In this document: piece after piece, positions 5,779 to 47,446 of the stretch
Layout of the letters: every line of letters starts with the position of its first letter
How positions within the stretch are numbered: the stretch's first letter is position 1
NCBI GenBank assembly: GCA_964581365.1
Contig: CAZOOF010000002.1
Coordinates: 9,826 to 73,825, forward strand
Reading direction: 5' to 3'
DNA from: an uncultured Chromatiales bacterium
GTDB taxonomy: Bacteria; Pseudomonadota; Gammaproteobacteria; SZUA-140
DNA: 64,000 nucleotides
Notes under the pieces: model-generated
What the model saw: only the letters and a program-made list of their open reading frames with translations
What the model was told of the DNA's origin: nothing
Databases searched by the model: none
Program-made: the position numbers and the translations under genes

Positions 5779-6825
5779 TTGGTAATGAAGTACAGCCAGC
5801 TCGGAACCACCGGCGTCCAGGTAAGCCGTATCTGCCTGGGCACGATGACCTTCGGCGAACAGAATACCGAAGCGGAGGCCCATGCCCAGTTCGATGCCGC
5901 GTTCGATGCAGGCATCAACTTCATCGACACGGCGGAAATGTATCCGGTTCCGCCGAAGGCGGAGACCTACGGTGACACCGAGCGCTATATCGGCAGCTGG
6001 CTGCGCCGCAGCGGACGCCGGGATCGCGTGATCCTCGCCACCAAGGTGATGGGGCCTTCCGAAGATCTGCGTTACGTGCGTGACGGATCGACCCGGCTCG
6101 ACCGCCGCAACATCGAAGCCGCGATCGATGCCAGCCTGGAGCGCCTTGGCACCGACTACATCGACCTCTATCAGCTTCACTGGCCGGACCGCCGCAGCAA
6201 CTTCTTCGGCAAGCTGGGTTACGTGCACGATCCGCAGGACGACCCGATCCCGCTGGAGGAAACGCTGGCTGCGCTGGGACGCCTGGTGGAAGCGGGCAAG
6301 GTGCGTTTCATCGGCGTTTCCAATGAAACACCCTGGGGCGTAATGCGCTACCTGCAACTCGCCGCCGAGCGCGGTCTACCGCGCATCGTCAGCATCCAGA
6401 ACCCGTACAATCTGCTCAATCGCAGCTTCGAAGTCGGCCTGGCCGAGATCGCGCACCGCGAATCGGTCGGCCTGCTGGCGTATTCCCCGCTCGGCTTCGG
6501 CGTGCTCAGCGGCAAGTACCTCGATGGCCAGCGTCCCGAGGGCGCGCGCCTGAGCCGCTTCCAGCGTTTCCAACGCTATACCAAGGAAGCCGCGCAGGAT
6601 TCGATCCGCGCCTACGTGGAAGCCGCGCGCAAGCATGGCCTCGATCCCGCGCAAATGGCGCTGGCCTACGTGAATACTCGCTCATTCCTTACCAGCACTA
6701 TCATCGGCGCAACTGATCTGCAGCAGCTCGCCGCCAACATCGCCAGCATCGATGTGGAATTGCCGGAGGAAGTGCTGGCTGAGATCGAAGCCGTTCATCT
6801 GCGCCACCCCAATCCGTGCCCCTGA
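5779..6825 (+). CDS. tas: NADP(H)-dependent aldo/keto reductase (Tas-like).
   Basis: 348 aa. ICLGTMTFG…IDTAEMYP…LYQLHWPD…IGVSNE… are AKR-family motifs. Length and N-terminus resemble E. coli Tas. Confidence 0.8.
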   Translation: MVMKYSQLGTTGVQVSRICLGTMTFGEQNTEAEAHAQFDAAFDAGINFIDTAEMYPVPPKAETYGDTERYIGSWLRRSGRRDRVILATKVMGPSEDLRYVRDGSTRLDRRNIEAAIDASLERLGTDYIDLYQLHWPDRRSNFFGKLGYVHDPQDDPIPLEETLAALGRLVEAGKVRFIGVSNETPWGVMRYLQLAAERGLPRIVSIQNPYNLLNRSFEVGLAEIAHRESVGLLAYSPLGFGVLSGKYLDGQRPEGARLSRFQRFQRYTKEAAQDSIRAYVEAARKHGLDPAQMALAYVNTRSFLTSTIIGATDLQQLAANIASIDVELPEEVLAEIEAVHLRHPNPCP

Positions 6826-29830: not shown

Positions 29831-32800
29831 TCAGGAGGCGCGTAGCTGACGTTCGAATTCGTCCGGCGTCAGCGCCGGACTGCGCAGGAAGCCCTGATAA
29901 CGGTCGCAGCCGAGGGCTGCGAGGAAGGCAAGCTGACGCTCGTTCTCGACCCCTTCGGCGAGAATCCTGAGGTTCAGCGCCTGACCCATAGCGACGATGG
30001 CGCGCACCAGTTCGCAGTCACTGGGATCATCTGGAATTCCTTCGATGAAGCGCCGGTCGATTTTCAGCACATCCAGCGGGAAACGCTTGAGATGGGCAAG
30101 GGAAGAGTAACCGGTGCCGAAATCGTCGATCGCCAGCCGGATACCGAGATCACGCAAACGGCCCAGTATGATTTCGGCCTCCTCGGCATGGGTCATGATC
30201 GCGGTTTCGGTGAGCTCGAACTCCAGATGCCGGGGTGGGAAACCGGTATCCTTCAGGAGGCGATCCACCTGCTCATGAACATCCGAGTGCAGTAACTGGC
30301 GCGGAGACAGATTGACTGCCAGCGTCAGCGGCGGCAGGCCCTCATCCAGCCAGCGCCTTCCTTGCCGGCATACTTCACGCAAGGCCCAGCTGCCAATCTG
30401 CGCGATCATCCCCGTTTCTTCGGCGAGCGCGATCCATTCCGCGGTCGGCATCAGCCCGCGCTCGGGATCGTACCAGCGCAGCAGCGCTTCGGCGCCTATT
30501 ATCCGCCCGCTGGCAACCTCCACCTGAGGCTGATAGCAGACCTGCAATTGGCCCGCCCCGAGGGCGCGGTGCAACTGTGACTGCATCTCCACCCGCATTC
30601 GGGACGCTTCGGTCATTTCGTCGGAGTAGAACCGGACCTGCCCCTGTCCTTCGCCCTTGGCCCGATAAAGCGCGGCGTCAGCCTGTTGCAGCAGCAGCTC
30701 GGCGGTACGGCCATGCTCCGGGCACAGACTGACGCCGACACTGACATTGATCCGCACCTCCGAACCGTTGGACAGGTGCAGGGGTTCCGCAAGCTGGCGA
30801 ATGATCTTGGAGGCGATGCCGCTCACCTCACTGACCCCGCTGATGTCCTCCAGCAGGATGCAGAACTCGTCGCCGCTGAATCGCGCGACGGTATCGGCTG
30901 AACGCACGCAACGGCGCAGGCGCTCCGCCGACAGCCGCAGCAACTCATCGCCGGCCAGATGACCGAAGCTGTCGTTGATTTCCCCAAAGCCGTCCAGATC
31001 GAGCATGAGCACTGCCAGTCCGCCACCCCGCCTGATACGGACTTCTATCGAATGTTCCAGCCGGGTACGCATCAGCAGGCGATTGGGAAGGCCGGTGAGG
31101 GCATCGTGATGCGCCTGATGAGCAAGCTTGGCTTCAGATGCCTTGAGCCGCGAGATATCGGTGAACACCCCGACGTATCCGCTGATGCGTCCGCCCTGAT
31201 CGCGCAGGACGCTGATGCTGAGCAGGGAAGGAAAGATCTCTCCGCTCTTGCGCCGATCCCATACCTCGCTGCGCCAGTGACCGGTCTCGCGCAACCCACT
31301 CCACAGCTCGCGGTAGAAATCGAGGCCATGCCGACCGGAGCGGAACATCTCCGGGGTATTCCCCAGGATCTCCGCTTCCTCGTAACCCATCATGCGGCAG
31401 AGGGCTGGATTGACCATGGTGATCCGACGATCGGCATCAGTGACCAGAATACCGTCACCACTCCTTTCGAAGACCATCGCCGCCTGACGCAATCGTTCTT
31501 CGTTGCGCCTCCGCTCGGTGATATCCTGTGCCGTTCCGATGCCTTTCAACAGGGCACCGTGCTCATCGAAAGTCAGGTTCGCGCGCTCGCGTATCCATTT
31601 CTCCTCGCCGTTTACGACGATCCGGTGCTCCAGATCGTACTCCTCACCCCGGAGTGCCCGTTTCCAGGCCTCGTCCACCATGCGCTGGTCGTCGACGTGC
31701 ACGCAGCCGAGAAAGCGCTCATAGGTAAGCGTCTCACCAACCGGGATGCCGAAGATGCGATAGCATTCGGGTGACCAGATCAGAACGTTCCGGCGGATAT
31801 CCAGCGACCAGCTTCCGATGCGGGCGACTCTCTGCGCGCGATTGAGATCTGCCTCGCGCTCCCGTAGCGTTTCCTCATAGGCCCGGCGTTCGCTCACATC
31901 CTGGATGCTCGCAATCAGATACTCGGGGACGCCGGCCTCGTCGACCAGACACTGCACATGAATAGACGCGTAAACAGGGGTTCCGTCGCGATGCAGCAGC
32001 CGCAGCTCTGCCTGTGAGCCCGCGACATCACCCGCCAGGACACGGCGCAGGCGAAGCGGATCACCCCGGCGATCAGCAGGGTGCAGAAGGGTTCTCCAGT
32101 CGCATTGCAGCAGCTCCTTCTCCGAGCGGCCGAGCATCTGGCACAGACAGGCATTGACGTTGACCGGCCTTCCCGTACGCGTGGAGAACATCGCGATGCC
32201 GGTGAAAGGCATATCGTGAAACGCCTGCACCAGACGATTCTTTTCCGCCTGCGCTGCCATGAGCGCGTCCTGGGTGCGCCGGCGATAGCGGCGCTGCACG
32301 TAGAAGACCGCGCTGACCAGCGGAAACATCGCTGCCAGGGCCGCCAGCGTTACCCACATGACGAAGCGGCGCAGCGGCGCCATGATTGCGCCCTGGTCGA
32401 TCAGCGTCATCACCAGCCAGTCGGTCGTCCCCACCGGATGATATGCTGCAAGGATCGCAGCGCCATTGCCATTGCGACCTGAAACCAGCCCCGGTCTGCC
32501 GGGATGCGCCTCCGCAAGCAGTCCTGGCGCAGAAAAACGCCTCGATTCGCCCAGTATCCTGATTCCGCCTTCACCCTGACGATAGACGATCGCGGTGCGA
32601 TCGGAGCCCGCCGGGAAAGCCTGCTCCAGCAACTGGCGAAGGCGATGCGCGTCACTCCGCATCACCAGCGTGGCCACCGGTACGCCGGGACGCGCACTGT
32701 CACTCAACGGCACTATCCAGTCGAGGTACGGCACGTTCGCTTCGCTGTAATGCAGGAACGGTCCAACACCGGCACCGCCACGCACCAGATTCATCAGCTG

Positions 32801-33427
32801 GGGTGGAACGCCTACGTAAGCTCCGCGCAGCAGGACTGCATTCCCGTCCGGATTGAACAGCAGCATCGCCCGATAGCGGTCGCCTCGCAGCATCGAATCG
32901 AGACGATCGACCACCGGCTCGAATCTGGCGCGGGTACCGTCATAGAAGAAGTCCGCGATCTGGCGCGCGAAGCCAGAACTTCCCATCAGCATCTCAGCGT
33001 CAGCGCTCCGTTCGTCGAGCCAGTTCTCCATTTCGCTGGCTATGCGCGCGGCATCGGCCGCCAGCGTACGCTGCGCCTCCCACTCGAGCTGCTCGGAGTG
33101 CTTGCGTGCCATACCGATATCGGTCACCGGCACGATCATGGCAAGACCGATCAGAATTGCGGTGAGGTGCCTGGGAGAGGCCCAGATCGGACCATCGCTG
33201 GAGGAGTGGCGCGTCCAGCGATGAAGGAGGTAGAGCACGCCGGCAGTTACGGAAACGAAGATGAGGGCCTTCGCCACTCCGATGCGCGGCAGCGCGCTTT
33301 GGTTGCCTACGACGACGGTGGTAAGCCAATCGGCACTGGCTGCCCAGAGGGCGACGAAACAGGCATACAACACCACGACGGCTGCGGGGCCGTAGACGCG
33401 GACTTGTGTGCCTGAAGAGGAGTGCAT
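29831..33427 (-). CDS. Multidomain c-di-GMP sensor protein: N-terminal multi-TM region with a periplasmic sensing domain, three PAS/PAC domains, GGDEF (…FSGDEF…) and EAL (…EGVEN…, …KIDRRFI…) domains. About 1198 aa.
   Basis: Domain motifs read from the translation. AGGAGA RBS before the ATG at 33427. Divergent from the decaheme gene with 113 bp between starts. Confidence 0.85.
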   Translation of the reverse strand: MHSSSGTQVRVYGPAAVVVLYACFVALWAASADWLTTVVVGNQSALPRIGVAKALIFVSVTAGVLYLLHRWTRHSSSDGPIWASPRHLTAILIGLAMIVPVTDIGMARKHSEQLEWEAQRTLAADAARIASEMENWLDERSADAEMLMGSSGFARQIADFFYDGTRARFEPVVDRLDSMLRGDRYRAMLLFNPDGNAVLLRGAYVGVPPQLMNLVRGGAGVGPFLHYSEANVPYLDWIVPLSDSARPGVPVATLVMRSDAHRLRQLLEQAFPAGSDRTAIVYRQGEGGIRILGESRRFSAPGLLAEAHPGRPGLVSGRNGNGAAILAAYHPVGTTDWLVMTLIDQGAIMAPLRRFVMWVTLAALAAMFPLVSAVFYVQRRYRRRTQDALMAAQAEKNRLVQAFHDMPFTGIAMFSTRTGRPVNVNACLCQMLGRSEKELLQCDWRTLLHPADRRGDPLRLRRVLAGDVAGSQAELRLLHRDGTPVYASIHVQCLVDEAGVPEYLIASIQDVSERRAYEETLREREADLNRAQRVARIGSWSLDIRRNVLIWSPECYRIFGIPVGETLTYERFLGCVHVDDQRMVDEAWKRALRGEEYDLEHRIVVNGEEKWIRERANLTFDEHGALLKGIGTAQDITERRRNEERLRQAAMVFERSGDGILVTDADRRITMVNPALCRMMGYEEAEILGNTPEMFRSGRHGLDFYRELWSGLRETGHWRSEVWDRRKSGEIFPSLLSISVLRDQGGRISGYVGVFTDISRLKASEAKLAHQAHHDALTGLPNRLLMRTRLEHSIEVRIRRGGGLAVLMLDLDGFGEINDSFGHLAGDELLRLSAERLRRCVRSADTVARFSGDEFCILLEDISGVSEVSGIASKIIRQLAEPLHLSNGSEVRINVSVGVSLCPEHGRTAELLLQQADAALYRAKGEGQGQVRFYSDEMTEASRMRVEMQSQLHRALGAGQLQVCYQPQVEVASGRIIGAEALLRWYDPERGLMPTAEWIALAEETGMIAQIGSWALREVCRQGRRWLDEGLPPLTLAVNLSPRQLLHSDVHEQVDRLLKDTGFPPRHLEFELTETAIMTHAEEAEIILGRLRDLGIRLAIDDFGTGYSSLAHLKRFPLDVLKIDRRFIEGIPDDPSDCELVRAIVAMGQALNLRILAEGVENERQLAFLAALGCDRYQGFLRSPALTPDEFERQLRAS

Positions 33428-33540
33428 GGGTCTCCTATCGGCACTTACGAGCGAGGATATGAATGACGTGATGCGAGTAAACCAGCGTAACCCTTTGCTT
33501 GCATCGGTCGATATCTTGGGCAACCCACCGGATTCATGAC

Positions 33541-34404
33541 ATGCCTTCGCTTATTCTTATAGTTATTCTGCTGGCGCTGTCTTCTCTTGCTTCAGCCGGA
33601 GATCGCGCTCCGGAGTACGTCGGAGACCGCGAATGCAGCTATTGCCACAAGCTGGAAGCGCGTCAGCACGCGAACAGCGATCACGGCCGCCTGGTCAGCG
33701 GACGCGTCGGCGAAGCTCGCAGTTGTGAAGCTTGCCACGGCCCGGGCAGCCGCCATATCACCGTAGTGGGTGACCCCTTGTACCGCGGACCGCTGCATAT
33801 CCGCACCGGCGCGGACCTGAAACGCGATCCGGAAGCCACATGCCTGGCCTGCCACGAGAACGGCTCGCGACTGCACTGGCATGTCAGCGCCCATGCGGCA
33901 TCCGATCTCGGCTGCACGAGCTGCCACAGCATACATGATTCCGGCAAGACCACCGACTGCGGCGCCTGCCACCGTCGCGAGAGTACCCGATTGCAGCGCT
34001 CCGCACACATGCCGGTGCGGGAAGGATCCATGCAGTGTGCCGACTGCCACGACCCTCACGGCGGCGACGGACCAGCGGCGCTGCGTGCGGGATCGGTCAA
34101 CGAGATCTGTCATCGCTGTCATGCTGACAAGCGTGGCCCCATGCTGTTTGAACATCTTCCGGTACGGGAGGACTGCACGCTGTGCCATGACCCCCATGGA
34201 TCCAGCCATCGCAGCATGCTGGTCCGGAAACCGCCGACGCTGTGTCAGCAGTGCCATATGCTCGGCGGACATCCGAGCTGGCTTTACGATAGCGCCGAGC
34301 TCGCCAACGCCGATATCAGCCAGTACGGCGCGCGGAACTGTCTGAACTGTCATTCACGAATCCACGGCTCCAATCATCCCTCGGGATCACGGTTTCAGCG
34401 CTGA
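33541..34404 (+). CDS. mtoA: Decaheme c-type cytochrome of the MtrA/DmsE/MtoA/PioA family (periplasmic component of a porin-cytochrome conduit).
   Basis: Signal peptide MPSLILIVILLALSSLASA, then exactly ten CxxCH motifs in about 260 residues (CSYCH, CEACH, CLACH, CTSCH, CGACH, CADCH, CHRCH, CTLCH, CQQCH, CLNCH). The stop overlaps the start of the downstream barrel gene (TGATG). Confidence 0.85.
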   Translation: MPSLILIVILLALSSLASAGDRAPEYVGDRECSYCHKLEARQHANSDHGRLVSGRVGEARSCEACHGPGSRHITVVGDPLYRGPLHIRTGADLKRDPEATCLACHENGSRLHWHVSAHAASDLGCTSCHSIHDSGKTTDCGACHRRESTRLQRSAHMPVREGSMQCADCHDPHGGDGPAALRAGSVNEICHRCHADKRGPMLFEHLPVREDCTLCHDPHGSSHRSMLVRKPPTLCQQCHMLGGHPSWLYDSAELANADISQYGARNCLNCHSRIHGSNHPSGSRFQR

Positions 34405-36614
34405 TGCAGCCCGGGTTTCCACCACTCATCCTTCATCCCTTCCGGCGCCGGCGGCTTCGCCTGGCGATCGGCGCCATGCTTCTGTGCGCTGACGCGGCTG
34501 CGGCCGTACAGCTGAGCGGCCTGATCGAAATCGGCGGACTGTATCTCACCGACGAACGCTCCGGCGCGCAGGGCTCATACGGTCCGGCGATTCATCAGGG
34601 AATACATCCGCTCGGCAGCCTCGATCTGAGTGTCGATGGCGAGGGCAGTCGGACCCGCATCCAGGGATCCATGACCAGCCCGGACTTTGGAGACTTCGGC
34701 GTCACGCTGCTCGCGAAGGATGGCGATAGCGTCCGCCTCGACTACCAGCGAATGGCTCGCCGGGGAGACGACGGACTTTCATTATTGCAGAGCGGCGCAG
34801 ACATTCTGACCCTGCCCCCAGGCTTCGTGCCCGCGAACACGACTCAGGATTTCGATCTGAGTGTCCTGCAACCGGTGGAGCTCGGTACCAACCGGGAGCG
34901 CTATGGGATTGCGGCGCGTCTGTTTGCGGGAAACGACTGGAGAACGGATGTCTCGGTACGCGAGGAACGGCGCCGCGGGGTGCAGGAAATCGGTGCAATG
35001 GTTGGCGTCGATCCGCTCGAGGCGCGCTCCATCATTCTTCCCGCACCCGTGGATCAGCAGTTGCGTGAGCTGGATGCCGCCCTGTCCTGGGAGCGGGACG
35101 GCCGTCAGTTGCGCATTGCGTATCGCGGATCTCTGTTCACCAACCAGCACCAGGCGCATCGCTGGGAGGTACCCTTCCTGGCTGCAGGCGACGATCCGCT
35201 TCCCGATACCGGTCGGCTCGGCACATCGCCGGACAATCATCATCACAGCATTTCCATCGATGCGGGCACCCGTCTCGGCAAGACGTCCCGTCTTAGTGCG
35301 AGCGCCAGCCTGTCGCGCATGCAGCAGGATGAGGACCTCCTCCCATACTCGACCGGCGCATCGCTCACGGCGCTGCCGCGCAACTCGGCCGAGGCCCGTG
35401 TCGATGTGCTTCGCCTGGCGCTGAACGCAAGTGCCCGCCCCCTGGATCGGCTGACACTGAGCGCCCGCCACCGCTACTACCGCAGCGACGACCGTATACC
35501 GCGGACCCGCTTCGAGCCCGTGCTTGCCGATACCATAGCGGGTCGCGCCACCATCAGCCGGCCCTACGACCACTTTCAGGCCAAAACACTTGTGCGGGCA
35601 GTGTATCGGGCAGCGACCGGATCGCGGATCCTGACGGAATGGACCCATGACATCGTCGGCCGCGATCTCCCTGGCAATGGGGGACACACCCGTGAAAACG
35701 GTCTGAAACTTGGTCTGCAACAGACGATCACGAGCCGGGCTCGTGCCCGCCTGTCCTTGCTGCATGCCGATCGCAACCGGCACGGACACGACGCCGTAAT
35801 CATCGACCCCACTGCTGCGGCCTCCTGTCCTGAAATAGTACTGGTGGATCCGGATCCCGATGGCGGAGCGCCGCGGGAGATCGATCGTTGCATCGGACAG
35901 CATCCGGATATGAGGCGGTTCATGCTGGGCGACCGCATCCGCCAGCGGCTCCAGACCGCAATCGACTGGTGGCCAACGGACGATGTGGATTTCGAACTGG
36001 GCTGGAGCATCAGCCGGGATCGGTACCGCGATCAAGCGGTATTCGACGATACTGTCTTCGGTCTGAGGGACAGCCGGGAAAGGATGCTGTACACCAACCT
36101 CAATTGGTCAGCACATGAATCATGGTCGATCAGCATTGCTTATTCCCGCGAGTATCTCGATGCGGCGCAGACCGGGCGGGACATGGCGCATGACCAGCCG
36201 TCAGCGCCGATCGACTCCAGCACCAACTGGCGGGCCCGCTCACATGACCGCGCCGATACCATCAGCGCGGGCCTTCGTCTCGACCTCCCCGACGGACGCA
36301 CCCGCCTGGCGCTGGATCTGGCTCACATTCGCGAACGCAATCGAATCCGGCTCGAAAGCCGCCTGCCTGCAGCCCAGCTTCCCGATGATGGCGCCAGGCG
36401 GCAGTACGCAGAGCTTCATGGAGAGCACGAGCCCGATGACCGGATCCTGCTGAAGGCGGGAGTGCGCTGGGAAGCGGTCATGGCGACCGACCGCAGCGAC
36501 AGTGGCATCGAAGTCGGAGAGATGCCCGGATTGAACGGAGTGCTGGCCTTGCGCAGTGGTGACACCGACTACGATGTCCTGCTGATCTGGAGTTCGATCA
36601 CATACCTTTGGTAG
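34404..36614 (+). CDS. mtoB: MtrB/MtoB/PioB-family outer-membrane beta-barrel porin partner of the decaheme cytochrome.
   Basis: 736 aa. N-terminal signal peptide, amphipathic beta-strand periodicity throughout, and a C-terminal …SITYLW aromatic terminus. Translationally coupled to mtoA. Size matches MtrB/PioB. Confidence 0.75.
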   Translation: MQPGFPPLILHPFRRRRLRLAIGAMLLCADAAAAVQLSGLIEIGGLYLTDERSGAQGSYGPAIHQGIHPLGSLDLSVDGEGSRTRIQGSMTSPDFGDFGVTLLAKDGDSVRLDYQRMARRGDDGLSLLQSGADILTLPPGFVPANTTQDFDLSVLQPVELGTNRERYGIAARLFAGNDWRTDVSVREERRRGVQEIGAMVGVDPLEARSIILPAPVDQQLRELDAALSWERDGRQLRIAYRGSLFTNQHQAHRWEVPFLAAGDDPLPDTGRLGTSPDNHHHSISIDAGTRLGKTSRLSASASLSRMQQDEDLLPYSTGASLTALPRNSAEARVDVLRLALNASARPLDRLTLSARHRYYRSDDRIPRTRFEPVLADTIAGRATISRPYDHFQAKTLVRAVYRAATGSRILTEWTHDIVGRDLPGNGGHTRENGLKLGLQQTITSRARARLSLLHADRNRHGHDAVIIDPTAAASCPEIVLVDPDPDGGAPREIDRCIGQHPDMRRFMLGDRIRQRLQTAIDWWPTDDVDFELGWSISRDRYRDQAVFDDTVFGLRDSRERMLYTNLNWSAHESWSISIAYSREYLDAAQTGRDMAHDQPSAPIDSSTNWRARSHDRADTISAGLRLDLPDGRTRLALDLAHIRERNRIRLESRLPAAQLPDDGARRQYAELHGEHEPDDRILLKAGVRWEAVMATDRSDSGIEVGEMPGLNGVLALRSGDTDYDVLLIWSSITYLW

Positions 36615-38133
36615 CCCGTACCGCAGACCTCCGGTCGCCTGCGCTGGCCGAGGCCATGACTACCCGGTTGCGTCCATCGCTCTTGGCCATGTAGAGCGCC
36701 ATGTCGGCGGCCCGGATCAGTTCCTCACCGGCGCCGGCGTGACGCGGCAGCTCGGCCACGCCGATGCTGACGGTCAGATGCAAGGTATCACCCGCGCGAT
36801 CATCCAGAGGACGAGCCGAGATCGCCATCCGCAGCCGCTCAGCGATCGCCAGAGCGGTTTCGGCGCGGGTGTCGGGAAGCGCAATGATGATCTCCTCGCC
36901 ACCATACCGCGCCACCAGATCCTGCTGACGGGCTTTCTCGCGAACGACCGCACTGACCATGCGCAGTGCGTCGTCGCCGACCTGGTGCCCGAACGAATCA
37001 TTGATGTTCTTGAAGTGATCGACATCCATCATCAGCACCGATAGCGGCCGATCCGGCCCATGTGCGGCAATCAGACGATCGAATTCCGAATTGAAACTGG
37101 TGCGATTGAGCAGGCCGGTGAGTCCGTCATGATTTGCCAGGCGTTCCAGCTTGCTCTGGTCCTCCTGCAGTTTGTTCGCCATGTCATTGAACCCGATGAC
37201 GAGGTCATCGATCTCGTCGCCGCTCAGGCGGCGCCGGGGCAGTTCGAAGCGCGCGCCCAGGTCGCCGGCCGACAGACGCTCCATGGCACCGCGCAGCTTG
37301 TTGATGTTGCGGAACACCAGGCGATCGAATACGACGAAGATCAACACCAGGCTTGCCAGGCTTGCCAGGATCTTCAGCACCAGCTGTGACAACAGGGTGC
37401 CGTGGATGTCACGGTTGACCTCGGCGATGGAAAACTTCAGCTCGACCGCTCCAAGCACCTCGCCTTCACGCGCATCGAAGTGGCAACCGGTGGCCTCGGA
37501 GCAACCGCTCCTGCGCACCTGATAGGGCGCAACCATGCGCATGAGATCGCCATCTATGGTGAACTCCGTCTGCGCCGTTTCCAGCACTCTTCGTTCGAGT
37601 TCATCATGCGGTCGCGAACGGGGATCCACCTCGAGCGGCTGATTATAGCTGCGGACCAGGTCCCGGGAACGCGCGATCTCGAAGCTCAGCTCGTTCATCG
37701 CGACGATCATGTCGGCTCGCTCGTCGGGATCTCTCACCTCCACCAACTCGCGCTCCAGGCGAGCCAACTCAGCTTCACTATCATGTATATAGTTGAGTTC
37801 TCTCGGGAGATCGATTTCCCGGCGAACCCGCTCGAAGATCTCGTTGACCCGGGGTCCGCGGATGACACGTATGGACTCAACCTCCGAGAGTTCGCGCGAA
37901 AGATCCTCGAAGTAGGAAAACCGGGCGCTCATCTTGCCCTCACGCATCAGCGCATTGAGGGCGACGCGGACACCCTCGCCGGCGGCCCCCCCCCAGCGCT
38001 GCACCTCCTGCATCACCAGCTGACGTGCCTGCTGCACCTCCAGCCATACCGCCGTCACCACGAATGGCAGCCAGATCAGCCCGATCGTCAGGATCAGCTT
38101 GGTGCTCAGGCGGCTTGAGATCGGTCTTTTCAC
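36598..38133 (-). CDS. Membrane diguanylate cyclase: periplasmic sensor domain (about 230 aa, contains C-x5-C-H 'CSEATGCH'), TM, HAMP, then GGDEF (RYGGEEI).
   Basis: N-terminal TM (LILTIGLIWLPFVVTAV), periplasmic region, second TM (LVLKILASLASLVLIFVVF), HAMP, and GGDEF motifs (DGLTGLLNR…DVDHFKNIND…RYGGEEI). It lies 7 nt downstream of the tetraheme cytochrome gene. Confidence 0.85.
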   Translation of the reverse strand: MKRPISSRLSTKLILTIGLIWLPFVVTAVWLEVQQARQLVMQEVQRWGGAAGEGVRVALNALMREGKMSARFSYFEDLSRELSEVESIRVIRGPRVNEIFERVRREIDLPRELNYIHDSEAELARLERELVEVRDPDERADMIVAMNELSFEIARSRDLVRSYNQPLEVDPRSRPHDELERRVLETAQTEFTIDGDLMRMVAPYQVRRSGCSEATGCHFDAREGEVLGAVELKFSIAEVNRDIHGTLLSQLVLKILASLASLVLIFVVFDRLVFRNINKLRGAMERLSAGDLGARFELPRRRLSGDEIDDLVIGFNDMANKLQEDQSKLERLANHDGLTGLLNRTSFNSEFDRLIAAHGPDRPLSVLMMDVDHFKNINDSFGHQVGDDALRMVSAVVREKARQQDLVARYGGEEIIIALPDTRAETALAIAERLRMAISARPLDDRAGDTLHLTVSIGVAELPRHAGAGEELIRAADMALYMAKSDGRNRVVMASASAGDRRSAVRATKGM

Positions 38134-38140
38134 GCGAGCA

Positions 38141-38722
38141 TCACCGGTAGCTGCGATGGTAGCTGCGGGTCTTTGTTAGGCGCTCCTCGAAATCGAATTC
38201 GTATTTCCCGTCGAGCGCGGGCTGGAACGGGGTGTCTTCGTGCTCATGACAGGCGGTACATACCGACGGATCATCCGACCCATAGCGCTGCCCGGCGCTT
38301 ATCAGCTCATCGCGATCGAGACTGCCACGGCGGGTTTTGTGGATCTCCCGATATTTCTCCCCAGCGCCGTGGCACATCTCACAACCGATGCCGGCGCGAT
38401 TGGGCGTTTCGCGCGCGCTCACATAGCCACCAGGCAAGCGAAAGCCCGTCGTATGACAGCGCAGGCAATCCTCTTCGGTCGTGTAGTCGCGCGACGGATC
38501 GAGATCTGCTTTTTTCTTCGGAGCACGACGCTGCCCCGGCTTGAGCAGCTCGAAGGCGCGTGCATGCGAACTCCGGCGCCAGTCTTCGTATTGGGCCTTG
38601 TGACACATGGCACAGCTCTCATGACCGACATACTCTGGACCCGGACCCGAAGCGGCGTTCAGACCGGAATGAGCAGCCGCAGTCCCGGCAACCACCAAAG
38701 CCAGGACCACCCAGCGGGCCAT
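38141..38722 (-). CDS. Periplasmic tetraheme c-type cytochrome (193 aa).
   Basis: Signal peptide MARWVVLALVVAGTAAA, then four CxxCH motifs (CAMCH, CLRCH, CEMCH, CTACH). Its N-terminus (PEYVGHESCAMCHK) parallels that of the decaheme protein (PEYVGDRECSYCHK). Confidence 0.8.
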   Translation of the reverse strand: MARWVVLALVVAGTAAAHSGLNAASGPGPEYVGHESCAMCHKAQYEDWRRSSHARAFELLKPGQRRAPKKKADLDPSRDYTTEEDCLRCHTTGFRLPGGYVSARETPNRAGIGCEMCHGAGEKYREIHKTRRGSLDRDELISAGQRYGSDDPSVCTACHEHEDTPFQPALDGKYEFDFEERLTKTRSYHRSYR

Positions 38723-38892
38723 GGCCACCGAGGCCTTTACGCTTCCCGCGACGATATGCGTTATCTTCCCTTGAATGTGTATAGCCACAGGATGTTATCG
38801 TTATACCTGTGCTGGGACTTGAATAGGCCCAATGGGTGAGGAGCCGCCATGGAGTGCATGTGCCTGATCGGCGCGATGGACGAGGCAGGGCC

Positions 38893-39732
38893 ATGGACAC
38901 CACGGCGCGACTGAGACGTCTGACTCCGGCGGGCGTCGAGGTCGCGCTGCACGGGTGCTTCCTGAGTCACCGGCTGCATGAGCGCGGGGCATGCGGAAGA
39001 CCGTTCGTCTACACCAATTTCATCGCCAGTCTGGATGGACGCATTTCATGGAAGAACCCCGCGGGCTTTCGTGAGGTACCGCCGGCGTGCAGCAATGACC
39101 ATGACCAGCGCCTCTACCATGAGCTGGCGGCCCAAGCAGATATCCTGATTACCAGCTCACGCCACCTGCGCGCAGTCGCTGCCGGGCGCGGGGCTGGAAT
39201 GTTGACACTTGGAGAGCATGCGGCGGAGCTGGCGAACTGGCGCCGCGCCAGCGGTCTGACGGAGCGCCCTCGCGTGGCGGTCGTGAGCGCGAAGCTGGAT
39301 CTCCCGCCCAGGGAGCAGCTGCCGGATATCGCCGGCGAAATCACAGTACTTACCTGGGGCCACGCCGAACCGCGCCGGCTCGCCGAGGCTCGCGCTCGGG
39401 GCTACGAGGTTCAGGTGTGCGGCGGTGGTCCGCACATCGATGGTCTGCAGCTGCTGGCCGCATTGAACCAGTGTCAGGCGATCTATTCAGTGGCGGGTCC
39501 GCAACTGCACACGGCCCTGCTCCGGGCCGGACGGATGGATCGGATCTATCTGACCCTGGTGCCGCTGCTCCTCGGCGGAGACGACTATGACACCCTGACC
39601 GCGGGTACTCCGCTATCTCCCCCGCCTTGCTACGAGCTTAGCGAACTGTGGCAAGACGAATCGGAGCCGAAGGGTTGTGGTCAGCTGTTCGCGGTTTTCG
39701 ACTACCGCACCAGCGCCCGGGATCAGAAATAG
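38893..39732 (+). CDS. RibD C-terminal domain/dihydrofolate-reductase-like family protein.
   Basis: …FIASLDGRISW…LYHELAAQADILITSSRHL… matches the RibD_C/DHFR-like reductase fold pattern. Substrate unknown. Confidence 0.6.
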   Translation: MDTTARLRRLTPAGVEVALHGCFLSHRLHERGACGRPFVYTNFIASLDGRISWKNPAGFREVPPACSNDHDQRLYHELAAQADILITSSRHLRAVAAGRGAGMLTLGEHAAELANWRRASGLTERPRVAVVSAKLDLPPREQLPDIAGEITVLTWGHAEPRRLAEARARGYEVQVCGGGPHIDGLQLLAALNQCQAIYSVAGPQLHTALLRAGRMDRIYLTLVPLLLGGDDYDTLTAGTPLSPPPCYELSELWQDESEPKGCGQLFAVFDYRTSARDQK

Positions 39733-40208
39733 AGGCGAGCGCCAATCGCCAGATTGATGTCCAGATCCGTATCCGGAGCAACATCGAGAATCGGCACGAA
39801 CTCGCCAAAGAGTTCGACCGGCTGCCGGGGGAAGTGGTAGGTGATGCCGAGGGGAATGCGTATTCCAAACAGCGTGTCGTCCTTGTTCCGGCCGCGACCA
39901 TCGTCGTCTTCGAACTTGATCCTGCCGCCGAGCCCGTAGAACAGGGATACCCGGCCTTCAAAGTCCGCGGGGCGGAGCATGTTGAAGTCGTGAATCAGAT
40001 AATCGGCATGGAACTGAAACGAGTCGTTCTCGGAGAACGACCACGCCGCGCCGGCGTCAACCGCATGGGTATTATTGAGCCAGCTCTTGACGGTCAGACC
40101 GGTAGGTTCGCCGATGATGATGCCGGCACCGAAAGTCCCCTGCGCCTGTGCGCTGCCCCAGCCCAGACCGAACGCCAGCGCAACGATGATTCCCGTCCTG
40201 TTCTTCAT
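39723..40208 (-). CDS. Small outer-membrane beta-barrel protein (OmpW-like), 161 aa.
   Basis: Signal peptide MKNRTGIIVALAFGLGWGSAQA, alternating hydrophobic strands, and a C-terminal …GARLYF. Confidence 0.65.
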   Translation of the reverse strand: MKNRTGIIVALAFGLGWGSAQAQGTFGAGIIIGEPTGLTVKSWLNNTHAVDAGAAWSFSENDSFQFHADYLIHDFNMLRPADFEGRVSLFYGLGGRIKFEDDDGRGRNKDDTLFGIRIPLGITYHFPRQPVELFGEFVPILDVAPDTDLDINLAIGARLYF

Positions 40209-40312
40209 TGGTTGCTTCTCCCCGCGAAGCGCAAGAATACCGGAGGGCGGAAACAAGGGAAAGGGCAGAGGGATGTGAGCAAGCCCGCGTGATGCGTCCT
40301 CATCCCCGCCAA

Positions 40313-40795
40313 TCAGTCGGTCCTCTTCCCTTTCTCGCCTTCGCGCCGCGGCGGCTGATTGATCAACAGCCAGTACATGCCGAGCTTTTGCACGGCCGCC
40401 GAGAAGCGCTCGAAATTCACGGGCTTGACGATGTAGCTGTTGACTCCCAGCTCATACGAGCCGACCACGTCCTGCAGCTCCATCGATGAAGTCAGGATGA
40501 CCGTGGGGATCATGCGCGTGCGGTCGTCGCTCTTGATCCGCCGCAAGACGTCCAGCCCGTCGACCTTCGGCAGCTTCAGATCCAGCAGGATCACCTTGGG
40601 CGTGTCATTGATGCTGCGCCCGGCGTAGCTGCCCTCGCAGAAGATGTAATCCAGCGCCTCCTGGCCATCGCGCGCAACGATGATCTCATTGCTCAGACCA
40701 GCCCTCCTCAGCGCACGCAAGGTAAGCTCGATGTCGTCAGGATTATCCTCGACCAGCAGAATCTCGATGGCCGGATTGAGCTTTGCATTATTCAT
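40313..40795 (-). CDS. Single-domain (receiver-only, CheY-like) response regulator.
   Basis: ILLVEDNPDD…ILLDLKLPKVDG…KPV… gives the receiver Asp pocket. No output domain. Confidence 0.8.
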   Translation of the reverse strand: MNNAKLNPAIEILLVEDNPDDIELTLRALRRAGLSNEIIVARDGQEALDYIFCEGSYAGRSINDTPKVILLDLKLPKVDGLDVLRRIKSDDRTRMIPTVILTSSMELQDVVGSYELGVNSYIVKPVNFERFSAAVQKLGMYWLLINQPPRREGEKGKRTD

Positions 40796-46297: not shown

Positions 46298-46579
46298 CGT
46301 TGGATTCCCTCCGGATTGCGATCATGACATCAGGATCGGGCGGCGACAAGCCCGTCCGGCCGCCCGCCACCAGCGGAAGCGGATGAAACCGGTCAGCTTT
46401 TTCTGTAAAATTCCGTCGCATAAAAAAGCGGTCTGGCCGGTCGCCGGCAAGGATCGCGCATGAGCCGGACCAACGGGGATCCATCCATACCCAGCAGCGA
46501 ACATCGTCACCTGCGCCCGATGCCGTGGGCAGGCCGATCCGGCCCCGAATCACCAATGTCTTTTGAGGAGATCTGCAGC

Positions 46580-47446
46580 ATGTCAGTCAAACATCCGGTC
46601 GTTGCCGTCACCGGTTCCTCGGGCGCGGGCACCAGCACGGTAAAGGCCTCGTTCGAGCACCTTTTCCGGCGTGAAGGTATCAAGGCCGCCATCGTCGAAG
46701 GCGATGCCTTCCATCGTTATGACCGCAACGAAATGAAGAAGGCGGTCGAGGAAGCGGCGCAGCAGGGCAGGACGCTGAGCCACTTCGGATCGGAAGCCAA
46801 TCTGTTCGAGGAATTGGAAGCGCTGTTCCGCAGCTACAGCGAAACCGGCACGGGCAAGGTCCGCAAGTACCTGCATGACGAGGAAGAGGCGGCCCCCTAC
46901 AAGCAGAAGCCCGGCACATTCACCCCCTGGGAAGATCTGCCCGGCGGCACCGATCTGCTGTTTTACGAAGGCCTTCATGGCGGCGTGGCCACCGAAACGG
47001 CCAATGTGGCCAAGTGGGTGGATCTGCTGATCGGCGTGGTGCCGATCGTCAACCTGGAGTGGATCCAGAAGATCCACCGCGATACATCCATGCGCGGCTA
47101 CTCGGCCGAAGCGGTGACCGATGCGATCCTGCGTCGCATGCCGGACTACGTGAAGACGATCACCCCGCAGTTCTCGCGTACCGACATCAACTTCCAGCGC
47201 GTGCCGGTGGTCGACACCTCCAACCCATTCATTGCTCGCGATATCCCCACGCTGGATGAAAGCTTCGTCGTCATCCGCTTCCGCTTCCCGGAAAAGCACG
47301 ACTTCCCGTACTACCTGTCGATGCTGAAGGATTCCTGGATGTCGCGTCCGAACACCATGGTCGTACCGGGCGGCAAGATGGGAGTGGCGATGGAGATCGT
47401 CCTGCGTCCGATCATCCACGACATGATGGAAAAGAGCCGCCGCTGA
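46580..47446 (+). CDS. prk: Phosphoribulokinase (Calvin-cycle PRK/CbbP).
   Basis: MSVKHPVVAVTGSSGAGTSTV… P-loop N-terminus, 289 aa as in bacterial PRK. Confidence 0.9.
   Translation: MSVKHPVVAVTGSSGAGTSTVKASFEHLFRREGIKAAIVEGDAFHRYDRNEMKKAVEEAAQQGRTLSHFGSEANLFEELEALFRSYSETGTGKVRKYLHDEEEAAPYKQKPGTFTPWEDLPGGTDLLFYEGLHGGVATETANVAKWVDLLIGVVPIVNLEWIQKIHRDTSMRGYSAEAVTDAILRRMPDYVKTITPQFSRTDINFQRVPVVDTSNPFIARDIPTLDESFVVIRFRFPEKHDFPYYLSMLKDSWMSRPNTMVVPGGKMGVAMEIVLRPIIHDMMEKSRR

Follow-up and report, generated by a model that had tools for sequence, protein, structure and literature searches.

A c554-family tetrahaem cytochrome gene paired with a putative haem-c receptor of C-X5-C-H type beside mtoAB in an uncultured Chromatiales bacterium

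Gene layout

The DNA analysed here, referred to as the window, is a stretch of 64,000 nucleotides from an uncultured Chromatiales bacterium (GenBank assembly GCA_964581365.1, contig CAZOOF010000002.1, positions 9,826 to 73,825 of the forward strand). Its minus strand carries a two-gene cassette in which a tetrahaem cytochrome precedes a membrane-bound diguanylate cyclase (DGC) whose periplasmic sensor domain contains the motif Cys-X5-Cys-His (CX5CH), and mtoA and mtoB lie alongside on the plus strand. Gene structure, family membership, conservation of the motif and of the putative haem ligands, fold and synteny were established by sequence comparison and one structure prediction. The genes concerned are listed below (nt, nucleotides; aa, amino acids; ORF, open reading frame; TM, transmembrane helix; E, expectation value).

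38141..38722, minus strand: tetrahaem cytochrome gene, 193 aa from the ATG at 38722 (PF13435, E 8e-27)
38134..38140, minus strand: spacer of 7 nt between the cytochrome stop and the GTG start of the DGC gene
36598..38133, minus strand: DGC gene, membrane diguanylate cyclase of 511 aa with TM1, predicted haem-type sensor, TM2, HAMP and GGDEF (ORF and domain matches)
33499..34404, plus strand: mtoA/mtrA-type periplasmic decahaem cytochrome (TIGR03508, 218.8 against a cutoff of 192.2; ten CXXCH)
34404..36614, plus strand: mtoB/mtrB/pioB-type outer-membrane porin (PF11854, E 2e-82; TIGR03509, 228, just below the cutoff of 240)

The TGA of the cytochrome gene ends at 38141 and the DGC gene starts with the GTG at 38133, leaving a gap of exactly 7 nt. 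These coordinates agree with a preliminary description of the locus, made from the sequence alone, which had placed a tetrahaem gene 7 nt upstream of a TM-sensor-TM-HAMP-GGDEF gene on the strand convergent to mtoAB. Since the spacer holds no terminator-like site, translational coupling across it is likely. The mtoA and mtoB genes abut at 34404, and the 3' ends of mtoB and the DGC gene overlap convergently by 17 nt (window 36598-36614), an overlap that leaves no room for a terminator and implies overlapping antisense transcripts.

For comparison, 39 loci encoding receptors of the same kind (the CX5CH clade) were obtained from exact-protein look-ups and one metagenome scan; most are metagenomic contigs without taxonomy. 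Dereplication at 90% identity gave 28 lineages with GC contents of 42-64%. The convergent 3' overlap is kept down to relatives of about 47-50% identity. Overlaps of 10-17 nt between mtoB and the cyclase gene were also seen at L001 11430-11446, L002 9350-9362 and L010 about 6799-6808.

The tetrahaem cytochrome

Upstream of the ATG at 38722 the cytochrome ORF continues open as far as a GTG at 38788. The ATG is also the start in an independent gene call made on a public contig of identical sequence, which likewise gives 193 aa, in keeping with the preliminary description. The product has a Sec-type signal peptide (MARWVVLALVVAGTAAA...) and four haem motifs.

38600..38614, minus strand: haem motif 1, CAMCH (cytochrome sequence)
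38453..38467, minus strand: haem motif 2, CLRCH (cytochrome sequence)
38369..38383, minus strand: haem motif 3, CEMCH (cytochrome sequence)
38246..38260, minus strand: haem motif 4, CTACH (cytochrome sequence)

The string PEYVG..C..CHK, said earlier to be common to this protein and the decahaem cytochrome, is indeed found in both (tetrahaem, GPEYVGHESCAMCHK; MtoA, APEYVGDRECSYCHK). The protein was assigned to the Cytochrome_C554 family (PF13435) with 94.4 bits against a cutoff of 20.8, and phmmer aligned it over its full length with cytochrome c554 of Nitrosomonas europaea (CycA; PDB 1BVB/1FT5) at E 2e-32; the four haem motifs are common to both proteins. Because its score against the NCBIfam CycA equivalog NF043010 (135.9 bits) falls below the cutoff of 400, it is classed by sequence as a c554-family member and not as an orthologue of the nitrifier CycA. 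The context also differs from that of N. europaea c554: no hydroxylamine oxidoreductase is encoded nearby, and the family is paired here with a receptor and often with MtoAB. A further difference is that motif 1 is CXCH in some lineages. This contraction to C-x-C-H (e.g. GCKCHK) was observed in the partner cytochromes of nine loci (L012, L013, L014, L017, L023, L032, L037, L039 and L041); in some lineages, then, both proteins of the cassette carry predicted haem motifs of non-canonical form.

The receptor and its sensor family

The features of the DGC are given below.

37393..38040, minus strand: periplasmic sensor domain, residues 32-247, predicted sCache/PAS-like fold, CX5CH clade related to the GSU0582/GSU0935 sensors
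37945..37947, minus strand: Met63, proposed redox-switched distal haem ligand (invariant; aligns with Met60 of GSU0935)
37930-37932, minus strand: Met68, invariant
37480..37503, minus strand: C211-S-E-A-T-G-C217-H218, candidate haem-c site with His218 as putative proximal ligand (conservation and alignment)
37162..37317, minus strand: HAMP linker, residues 273-324 (PF00672, E 6e-7)
36664..37137, minus strand: GGDEF domain, residues 333-490 (PF00990, E 1e-45; TIGR00254, 177 bits)

TM1 comprises residues 13-31. The periplasmic domain behind it had been put at 230 residues; it measures about 216 (about residues 32-247). The Cys-X5-Cys-His string was present as reported (RSGCSEATGCHFD, residues 208-220). 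The GGDEF domain scored 155.7 bits with PF00990 (cutoff 23.8) and well above the TIGR00254 cutoff of 37.4. Its active-site motif is GGEEI, with Ile for the final Phe, and is preceded by the RxxD I-site RQQD (stretch RQQD-LVARY-GGEEI). To judge from the sequence the domain is likely active, though non-canonical at position 5 of the motif.

The sensor domain alone matched nothing in Pfam (E<=10), NCBIfam or the PDB sequences. A word-indexed single-sequence homologue search with it was also empty, which was attributed to the word index. An exhaustive HMMER search was run over 1.84 billion cluster representatives (50% identity). Twenty-seven proteins matched at E<1e-16, 23 of them complete through the motif, and approximately 39 weaker matches covered only the N- and C-terminal thirds of the sensor. 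Because the strong matches carry the same TM-sensor-TM unit fused to three types of output, namely GGDEF, methyl-accepting chemotaxis protein (MCP) and hybrid histidine kinase, the sensor is taken from its sequence relationships to be a portable input module.

The preliminary description had staked its interpretation on conservation of the Cys residues in orthologues, and C-X5-C-H was found in 34/34 complete sensor genes among the fetched loci. Among the 23 complete representatives it was present in 21, and the other two, the MCP-type proteins P0021 and P0023, have C-X8-C-H (CSGGKSLTGCH and CAGKGGQSGCH). Residue conservation was read from an alignment of 24-25 sequences that are 27-49% identical to the window protein, plus a sister sequence 88% identical to it. 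Invariant positions were R56, N60, L62, M63, M68, R71, E81, R92, P110, P203, G216, C217, H218, L227, G228 and S235. C211 keeps its position except in the two CX8CH members. An artefactual ORF or a chance motif is ruled out by this conservation across the 39 loci.

A metagenome scan with a single-sequence query yielded one match, the sister metagenome-assembled genome L001, which is 82% identical in nucleotide sequence and syntenic over 20 kb. Amino-acid identity between L001 and the window is higher in the sensor domain (90%) than in the GGDEF domain (84%) or the cytochrome (80%).

Two proteins of a degenerate histidine-kinase subclade, P0028 and P0031, have C-X5/6-C-Tyr at the motif and a hairpin (see below) of half the usual length. 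Met63 is replaced by Ile in the former and Thr in the latter, Met68 by Leu, and Arg56, Arg71, Arg89 and Arg92 are all replaced. On the one contig of the two that was examined, that of P0028 (L045 1261-2718), no c554 gene lies upstream. The joint loss of the His, both Met and four Arg residues is the pattern expected of a lost haem pocket, in which these would have been the axial ligands and propionate binders.

Relationship to haem-c sensors

The weaker HMMER matches are shorter receptors, mostly MCPs, which have a canonical CXXCH at the corresponding place (in one case CX3CH). When an alignment of the CX5CH clade (A4) was compared with one of 28 such relatives (A5) using hhalign, the probability was 100% and E was 8.9e-44. 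The second Cys and the His fall in register, the first Cys lies three residues further out, and a block of roughly 70 residues (about residues 103-170 of the window protein) is an insertion in the CX5CH clade. Met63 is invariant in the CX5CH-clade alignments A3 and A4 and also in A5.

The A5 profile in turn matched the two Geobacter sensors of solved structure, GSU0935 (3B42) at E 2.4e-6 and GSU0582 (3B47) at E 8.4e-6. Met63 falls on residue 26 of the 3B42 chain and the motif His on residue 110, which with the 34-residue offset correspond to Met60 and His144. In GSU0935 these are the distal and the proximal haem ligand, respectively, and Met60 binds upon reduction, driving a switch from high spin to low spin (PMC8396549). 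The domain is thus probably not a Cache/CHASE module of the cofactor-free kind against which the preliminary description had set its proposal, the Cys-Cys-His set aligning with the CXXCH haem-c site of homologous sensors and, through these, with that of the solved Geobacter ones. A merged profile reached 3B42 at E 0.009. Against the PDB, the CX5CH profile gave only coiled-coil matches, which stem from the hairpin. Direct membership in the GSU0935-type sensors is not claimed, the direct comparison being non-significant (E 0.12).

GSU0582 and GSU0935, which are MCPs, share with the window receptor the TM-sensor-TM arrangement, a single c-type haem site (putative in the window protein) in the loop that precedes the final beta-strands, a second Cys followed by the proximal His, a Met in the N-terminal helix (Met60, equivalent to Met63 here) and a fold resembling PAS and CitA domains; they have been proposed to sense redox state or small ligands. 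The receptor described here differs in having C-X5-C-H in place of CXXCH, the inserted helical hairpin of about 70 residues, a GGDEF output and a c554 neighbour.

A second family of periplasmic haem sensors, DUF3365/Tll0287 ('sCache_heme'; PF11845; PDB 5B82), was considered and rejected. Tll0287 itself has His/Cys haem ligation. The window sensor had no match to the family model at E<=10 and has C-X5-C-H, whereas a canonical CXXCH defines that family, for which no cytochrome partner has been described (PMC12889525). Nor did the five CXXCH relatives that were scanned against Pfam match PF11845 at E<=0.01.

Predicted fold and the helical hairpin

The structure of the sensor domain was predicted with AlphaFold2 (AF2) from the 24-sequence alignment, with a confidence score (pLDDT) of 86.8. 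In the model a long N-terminal helix, which is continuous with TM1 and carries Met63, is followed by a short helix, a strand (85-92), a helix hairpin (94-132 and 136-163; pLDDT 96-98), a helix (178-186) and two strands (190-194 and 197-205). A loop of lower confidence (206-225) then holds the motif and leads to a final strand (226-235) and TM2. The predicted fold is PAS/sCache-like, set between two TM helices. A Foldseek comparison of the model with the PDB gave weak matches, the best being to a WalK model at E 0.011; the domain-swapped dimer state of the Geobacter structures may explain their absence from single-chain fold matches.

37645..37854, minus strand: antiparallel helical hairpin of about 70 residues, residues 94-163 (AF2), acidic, with a conserved tip D135-P-D-E-R139

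By profile alignment the hairpin is absent from the CXXCH relatives in A5. Its net charge averages -6 and reaches -14. For the partner cytochromes, which are neutral to strongly basic, the mean is +7 and the maximum +18 when haem propionates are left out of account. Hairpins of the highest acidity go together with the most basic cytochromes, a trend that is confounded by phylogeny. These features are suggestive of the hairpin as a candidate docking arm for the cytochrome.

Gene neighbourhoods across relatives

Using tblastn with the window proteins, a c554 homologue was found immediately upstream of the sensor gene and on the same strand at 36/39 loci, or 25/28 dereplicated lineages. Co-conservation of cytochrome and sensor, on which the preliminary description also rested, therefore extends over the full GC range and all three output types. 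The distance between the two genes varies between -23 and +269 nt and is below 115 nt in most cases. Pairwise identities of sensors and cytochromes are correlated at r = 0.94 (Mantel, 0/2000 permutations), which shows that the two genes are inherited as a unit but is in itself no proof of co-evolution. No c554 gene lies upstream of the three canonical CXXCH relatives whose contigs were examined, so the cytochrome partnership is specific to the clade that has both CX5CH and the hairpin.

MtoA and MtoB genes are adjacent in 12/28 lineages. The linkage of cytochrome and sensor (25/28) is accordingly tighter than that of sensor and MtoAB, and the tie to Mto is frequent and not obligatory. In the MCP and histidine-kinase versions the order mtoA-mtoB-c554-sensor runs in one direction (L005, a hybrid kinase; L009, an MCP; L013-L018 and L023), and mtoAB is convergent to the cassette in the window, L001, L002 and L010. 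In a large GGDEF subgroup (L022-L036) the c554-sensor pair stands alone amid housekeeping genes.

Several neighbourhoods had further features. In L009 / L021 (JGI Ga0224495_10000547) the series mtoA-mtoB-c554-sensor(MCP) lies inside a complete che cluster with CheA, CheW, CheR, CheD, CheB and three further MCPs, one of them with a NIT domain. A hybrid-kinase sensor without a cytochrome partner (L004 1-13764) adjoins an alpha-carboxysome/RuBisCO operon (CsoS2, CsoSCA, BMC shell proteins). Two relatives of about 47% identity (L002 3745-4473; P0069 contig 1618-2349) have, some 3 kb upstream of the cassette, a gene for a DsbD_TM/CcdA-like thiol-transfer membrane protein, which may bear on how the expanded Cys pair is kept reduced; the scanned flanks of the window showed no counterpart.

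Other genes of the window

Divergent from mtoA, and overlapping its annotated start, is a gene at 29831-33523 (minus strand) for a membrane protein of 1230 aa with a weak dCache_1 match, three PAS domains, GGDEF and EAL. Since this protein and the DGC border mtoAB, the conduit genes are flanked on both sides by enzymes of cyclic diguanylate (c-di-GMP) metabolism. At the same position L002 has an HDOD-GGDEF gene. No MtrC gene was present in the window. The flanks include genes for a small DUF3996 protein of outer-membrane type (39723-40256, minus strand), a stand-alone receiver-domain protein (40313-40795, minus strand) and phosphoribulokinase (46460-47446, plus strand), the last being a hint that the organism is a Calvin-cycle autotroph. 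All three are syntenic in the identical contig L046.

Interpretation

The synteny with mtoAB is explained most economically if c-di-GMP output is gated by the redox state of the neighbouring electron-transfer chain. The whole chain of events, in which the cytochrome relays the redox state of the periplasm or of Mto to a haem-c receptor controlling c-di-GMP, is given a probability of about 0.55. Its parts are of unequal strength. The cytochrome is very probably a functional partner of the receptor, and the sensor domain probably binds haem c. Among the alternatives raised earlier for the Cys motif, a variant haem-c attachment site appears to be the best supported. The link to extracellular electron transfer is plausible.

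We infer haem attachment to CX5CH, contact and electron transfer between cytochrome and sensor, a connection with Mto flux and the direction in which the output responds along the following lines. A single haem would be covalently attached through C211 and C217, with His218 as proximal ligand and Met63 as distal ligand on reduction. The tetrahaem cytochrome would come into equilibrium with the pool of periplasmic electrons that the MtoAB conduit serves, dock on the receptor, probably at the acidic hairpin specific to the clade, and pass electrons to or from the sensor haem. As happens in the Geobacter sensors, the change of oxidation state would alter the coordination and spin of the haem, whereupon the N-terminal helix and TM2 would move and HAMP would convert the movement into altered GGDEF activity. 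Levels of c-di-GMP, attachment and biofilm behaviour would then follow extracellular electron-transfer activity. In other lineages the same cytochrome-sensor front end would drive chemotaxis through an MCP or a phosphorelay through a hybrid kinase.

Several observations weigh against this scheme. The spacing CX5CH is missing from the haem-c motifs given as known in a 2024 review (CXCK, CX2CK, CX3CH, CX4CH, CX11CH, CX15CH and CX17CH), and no literature on CX5CH, CX6CH, CX7CH or CX8CH haem motifs was found, subscription journals possibly excepted. The long CX15CH motif needs a dedicated lyase, and neither in the window flanks nor in the conserved neighbourhoods was a gene for a dedicated haem lyase found, nor were ccm genes. 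The connection of the CX5CH clade to the Geobacter sensors is transitive, running through the CXXCH relatives: against the 3B42 sequence the CX5CH profile alone gave E 0.12 with hhalign and no match with hmmsearch. P0028 and P0031 keep both Cys residues after losing the His and Met, as would fit a role of the Cys pair independent of haem. As to the partnership, shared phylogeny alone can yield r = 0.94. Sixteen of the 28 lineages have no MtoAB in the fetched flanks; the genes may lie elsewhere in those genomes.

A first alternative is that the receptor is a haem-c sensor of nitric oxide (NO) or carbon monoxide (CO), the c554-type cytochrome keeping the sensor haem ferrous or scavenging NO; the link to MtoAB would then be indirect, for example through the nitrosative stress that arises when Fe(II) oxidation is coupled to nitrate or nitrite. 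The N. europaea c554 has a reported NO-reductase activity, and signalling from NO to c-di-GMP is an established theme. NO binds to GSU0582 and GSU0935 whether they are oxidised or reduced, and CO binds to the reduced forms, Met60 being displaced (PMC8396549); those DUF3365/Tll0287 haem-Cache receptors that carry signalling modules act as NO sensors (Deshpande et al. 2026 preprint, PMC12889525). A gas sensor leaves the mtoA-mtoB-c554-sensor operons unexplained, however; the canonical CXXCH relatives could equally bind NO, yet they lack the cytochrome, and no genes of NO metabolism lie near the locus in the window. We regard this alternative as unlikely.

It is distinctly unlikely that the Cys pair is no haem site at all and serves instead as a redox-active disulfide or, with His218, Met63 and Met68, as a site for Fe(II) or Cu(I), which the cytochrome would oxidise or reduce or with which it would merely be co-regulated. 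Such a role would suit the unestablished spacing of the motif, the persistence of both Cys in P0028 and P0031, the tolerance of loop length seen in the C-X8-C-H of P0021 and P0023, and the presence of Cys, His and Met sets typical of soft-metal ligands. Yet at its C-H pair the motif corresponds residue by residue to the CXXCH of homologous relatives, which in turn match the solved haem-c sensors, and neither the His that directly follows the second Cys nor the Met that takes the place of Met60 varies. The four invariant Arg are lost along with the His and Met, a better fit to a haem pocket than to a disulfide, and the hosts mature many c-type cytochromes, with MtoA and c554 encoded next door.

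That the cytochrome is a mere periplasmic shuttle of MtoAB (an analogue of MtoD, CctA or PpcA) set beside a receptor of some unrelated ligand by co-regulation is very unlikely: although no other periplasmic carrier is encoded next to mtoAB in the window and accessory periplasmic tetrahaem cytochromes beside mtrAB clusters are known (PMC8805035), the cytochrome stays with the sensor in many more lineages (25/28) than with MtoAB (12/28), even among housekeeping flanks, the spacers are short or overlapping, the loss of haem-pocket residues coincides with the loss of the cytochrome (P0028), and a primary shuttle role was judged less likely on the ground that linkage to the sensor exceeds linkage to MtoAB.

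Comparison with described systems

The scheme of a redox relay through the cytochrome has partial counterparts. In Escherichia coli the pentahaem cytochrome TorC binds the periplasmic domain of the sensor kinase TorS. TorS-TorC, like the pairs of H-NOX or NosP with a kinase or DGC, resembles the cassette in that a separately encoded haem protein modulates a signalling partner. The sensor in those systems is without a haem-c site, and the signal is the maturation state of the cytochrome or NO, whereas both partners are predicted haem proteins here, which suggests direct electron relay. Compared with the known haem-c PAS/Cache receptors, the motif spacing, the hairpin insertion and the dedicated cytochrome partner appear to be new.

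The MtoAB, MtrAB and PioAB conduits likewise consist of a decahaem cytochrome and a porin with a small periplasmic multihaem cytochrome alongside (MtoD, CctA, group-specific tetrahaems; PMC8805035), and differ in that the accessory cytochrome here is linked first to a receptor. The published surveys consulted mention no sensor, chemotaxis or diguanylate cyclase genes in these clusters. The mtrCAB survey covers accessory cytochromes and no sensors (Baker et al. 2022, PMC8805035), and the arrangement is not among the sensory haem proteins given in a Gallionellaceae pangenome paper. No literature combining MtoA, MtoB and c554 was found, subscription journals possibly excepted. The preliminary description did not recognise the arrangement as a characterised system, and the literature search gave no description of CX5CH or of the cassette.

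We put forward tentatively, at somewhat less than even odds, that the cassette is an undescribed signalling module in which a dedicated multihaem cytochrome acts as the 'ligand' of a haem-c receptor by direct protein-to-protein electron relay, with the haem on C-X5-C-H (C-X8-C-H in some) and with MtoAB wired to chemotaxis, c-di-GMP and phosphorelay.

Significance

It is an open question how minerals or electrodes are perceived by the bacteria that exchange electrons with them, whether in redox or energy taxis, in electrokinesis or in the choice between attaching and swimming, and no dedicated receptor tied to an outer-membrane conduit was identified in the literature searched. The cassette, a small cytochrome and a receptor domain conserved in many lineages and joined to all three major bacterial output types, is a testable candidate. 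If haem is attached as proposed, CX5CH and CX8CH would extend the catalogue of haem-c attachment motifs and would raise the question of which maturation system accepts them. In bioelectrochemical systems the module could also find use as a genetically encoded means of reporting or actuating extracellular electron transfer. If the redox-relay scheme is true, the module would be a device for sensing insoluble or extracellular electron donors and acceptors, and the cassette may be the means by which bacterial electron exchange with minerals is signalled to the pathways of biofilm formation, swimming and gene regulation.

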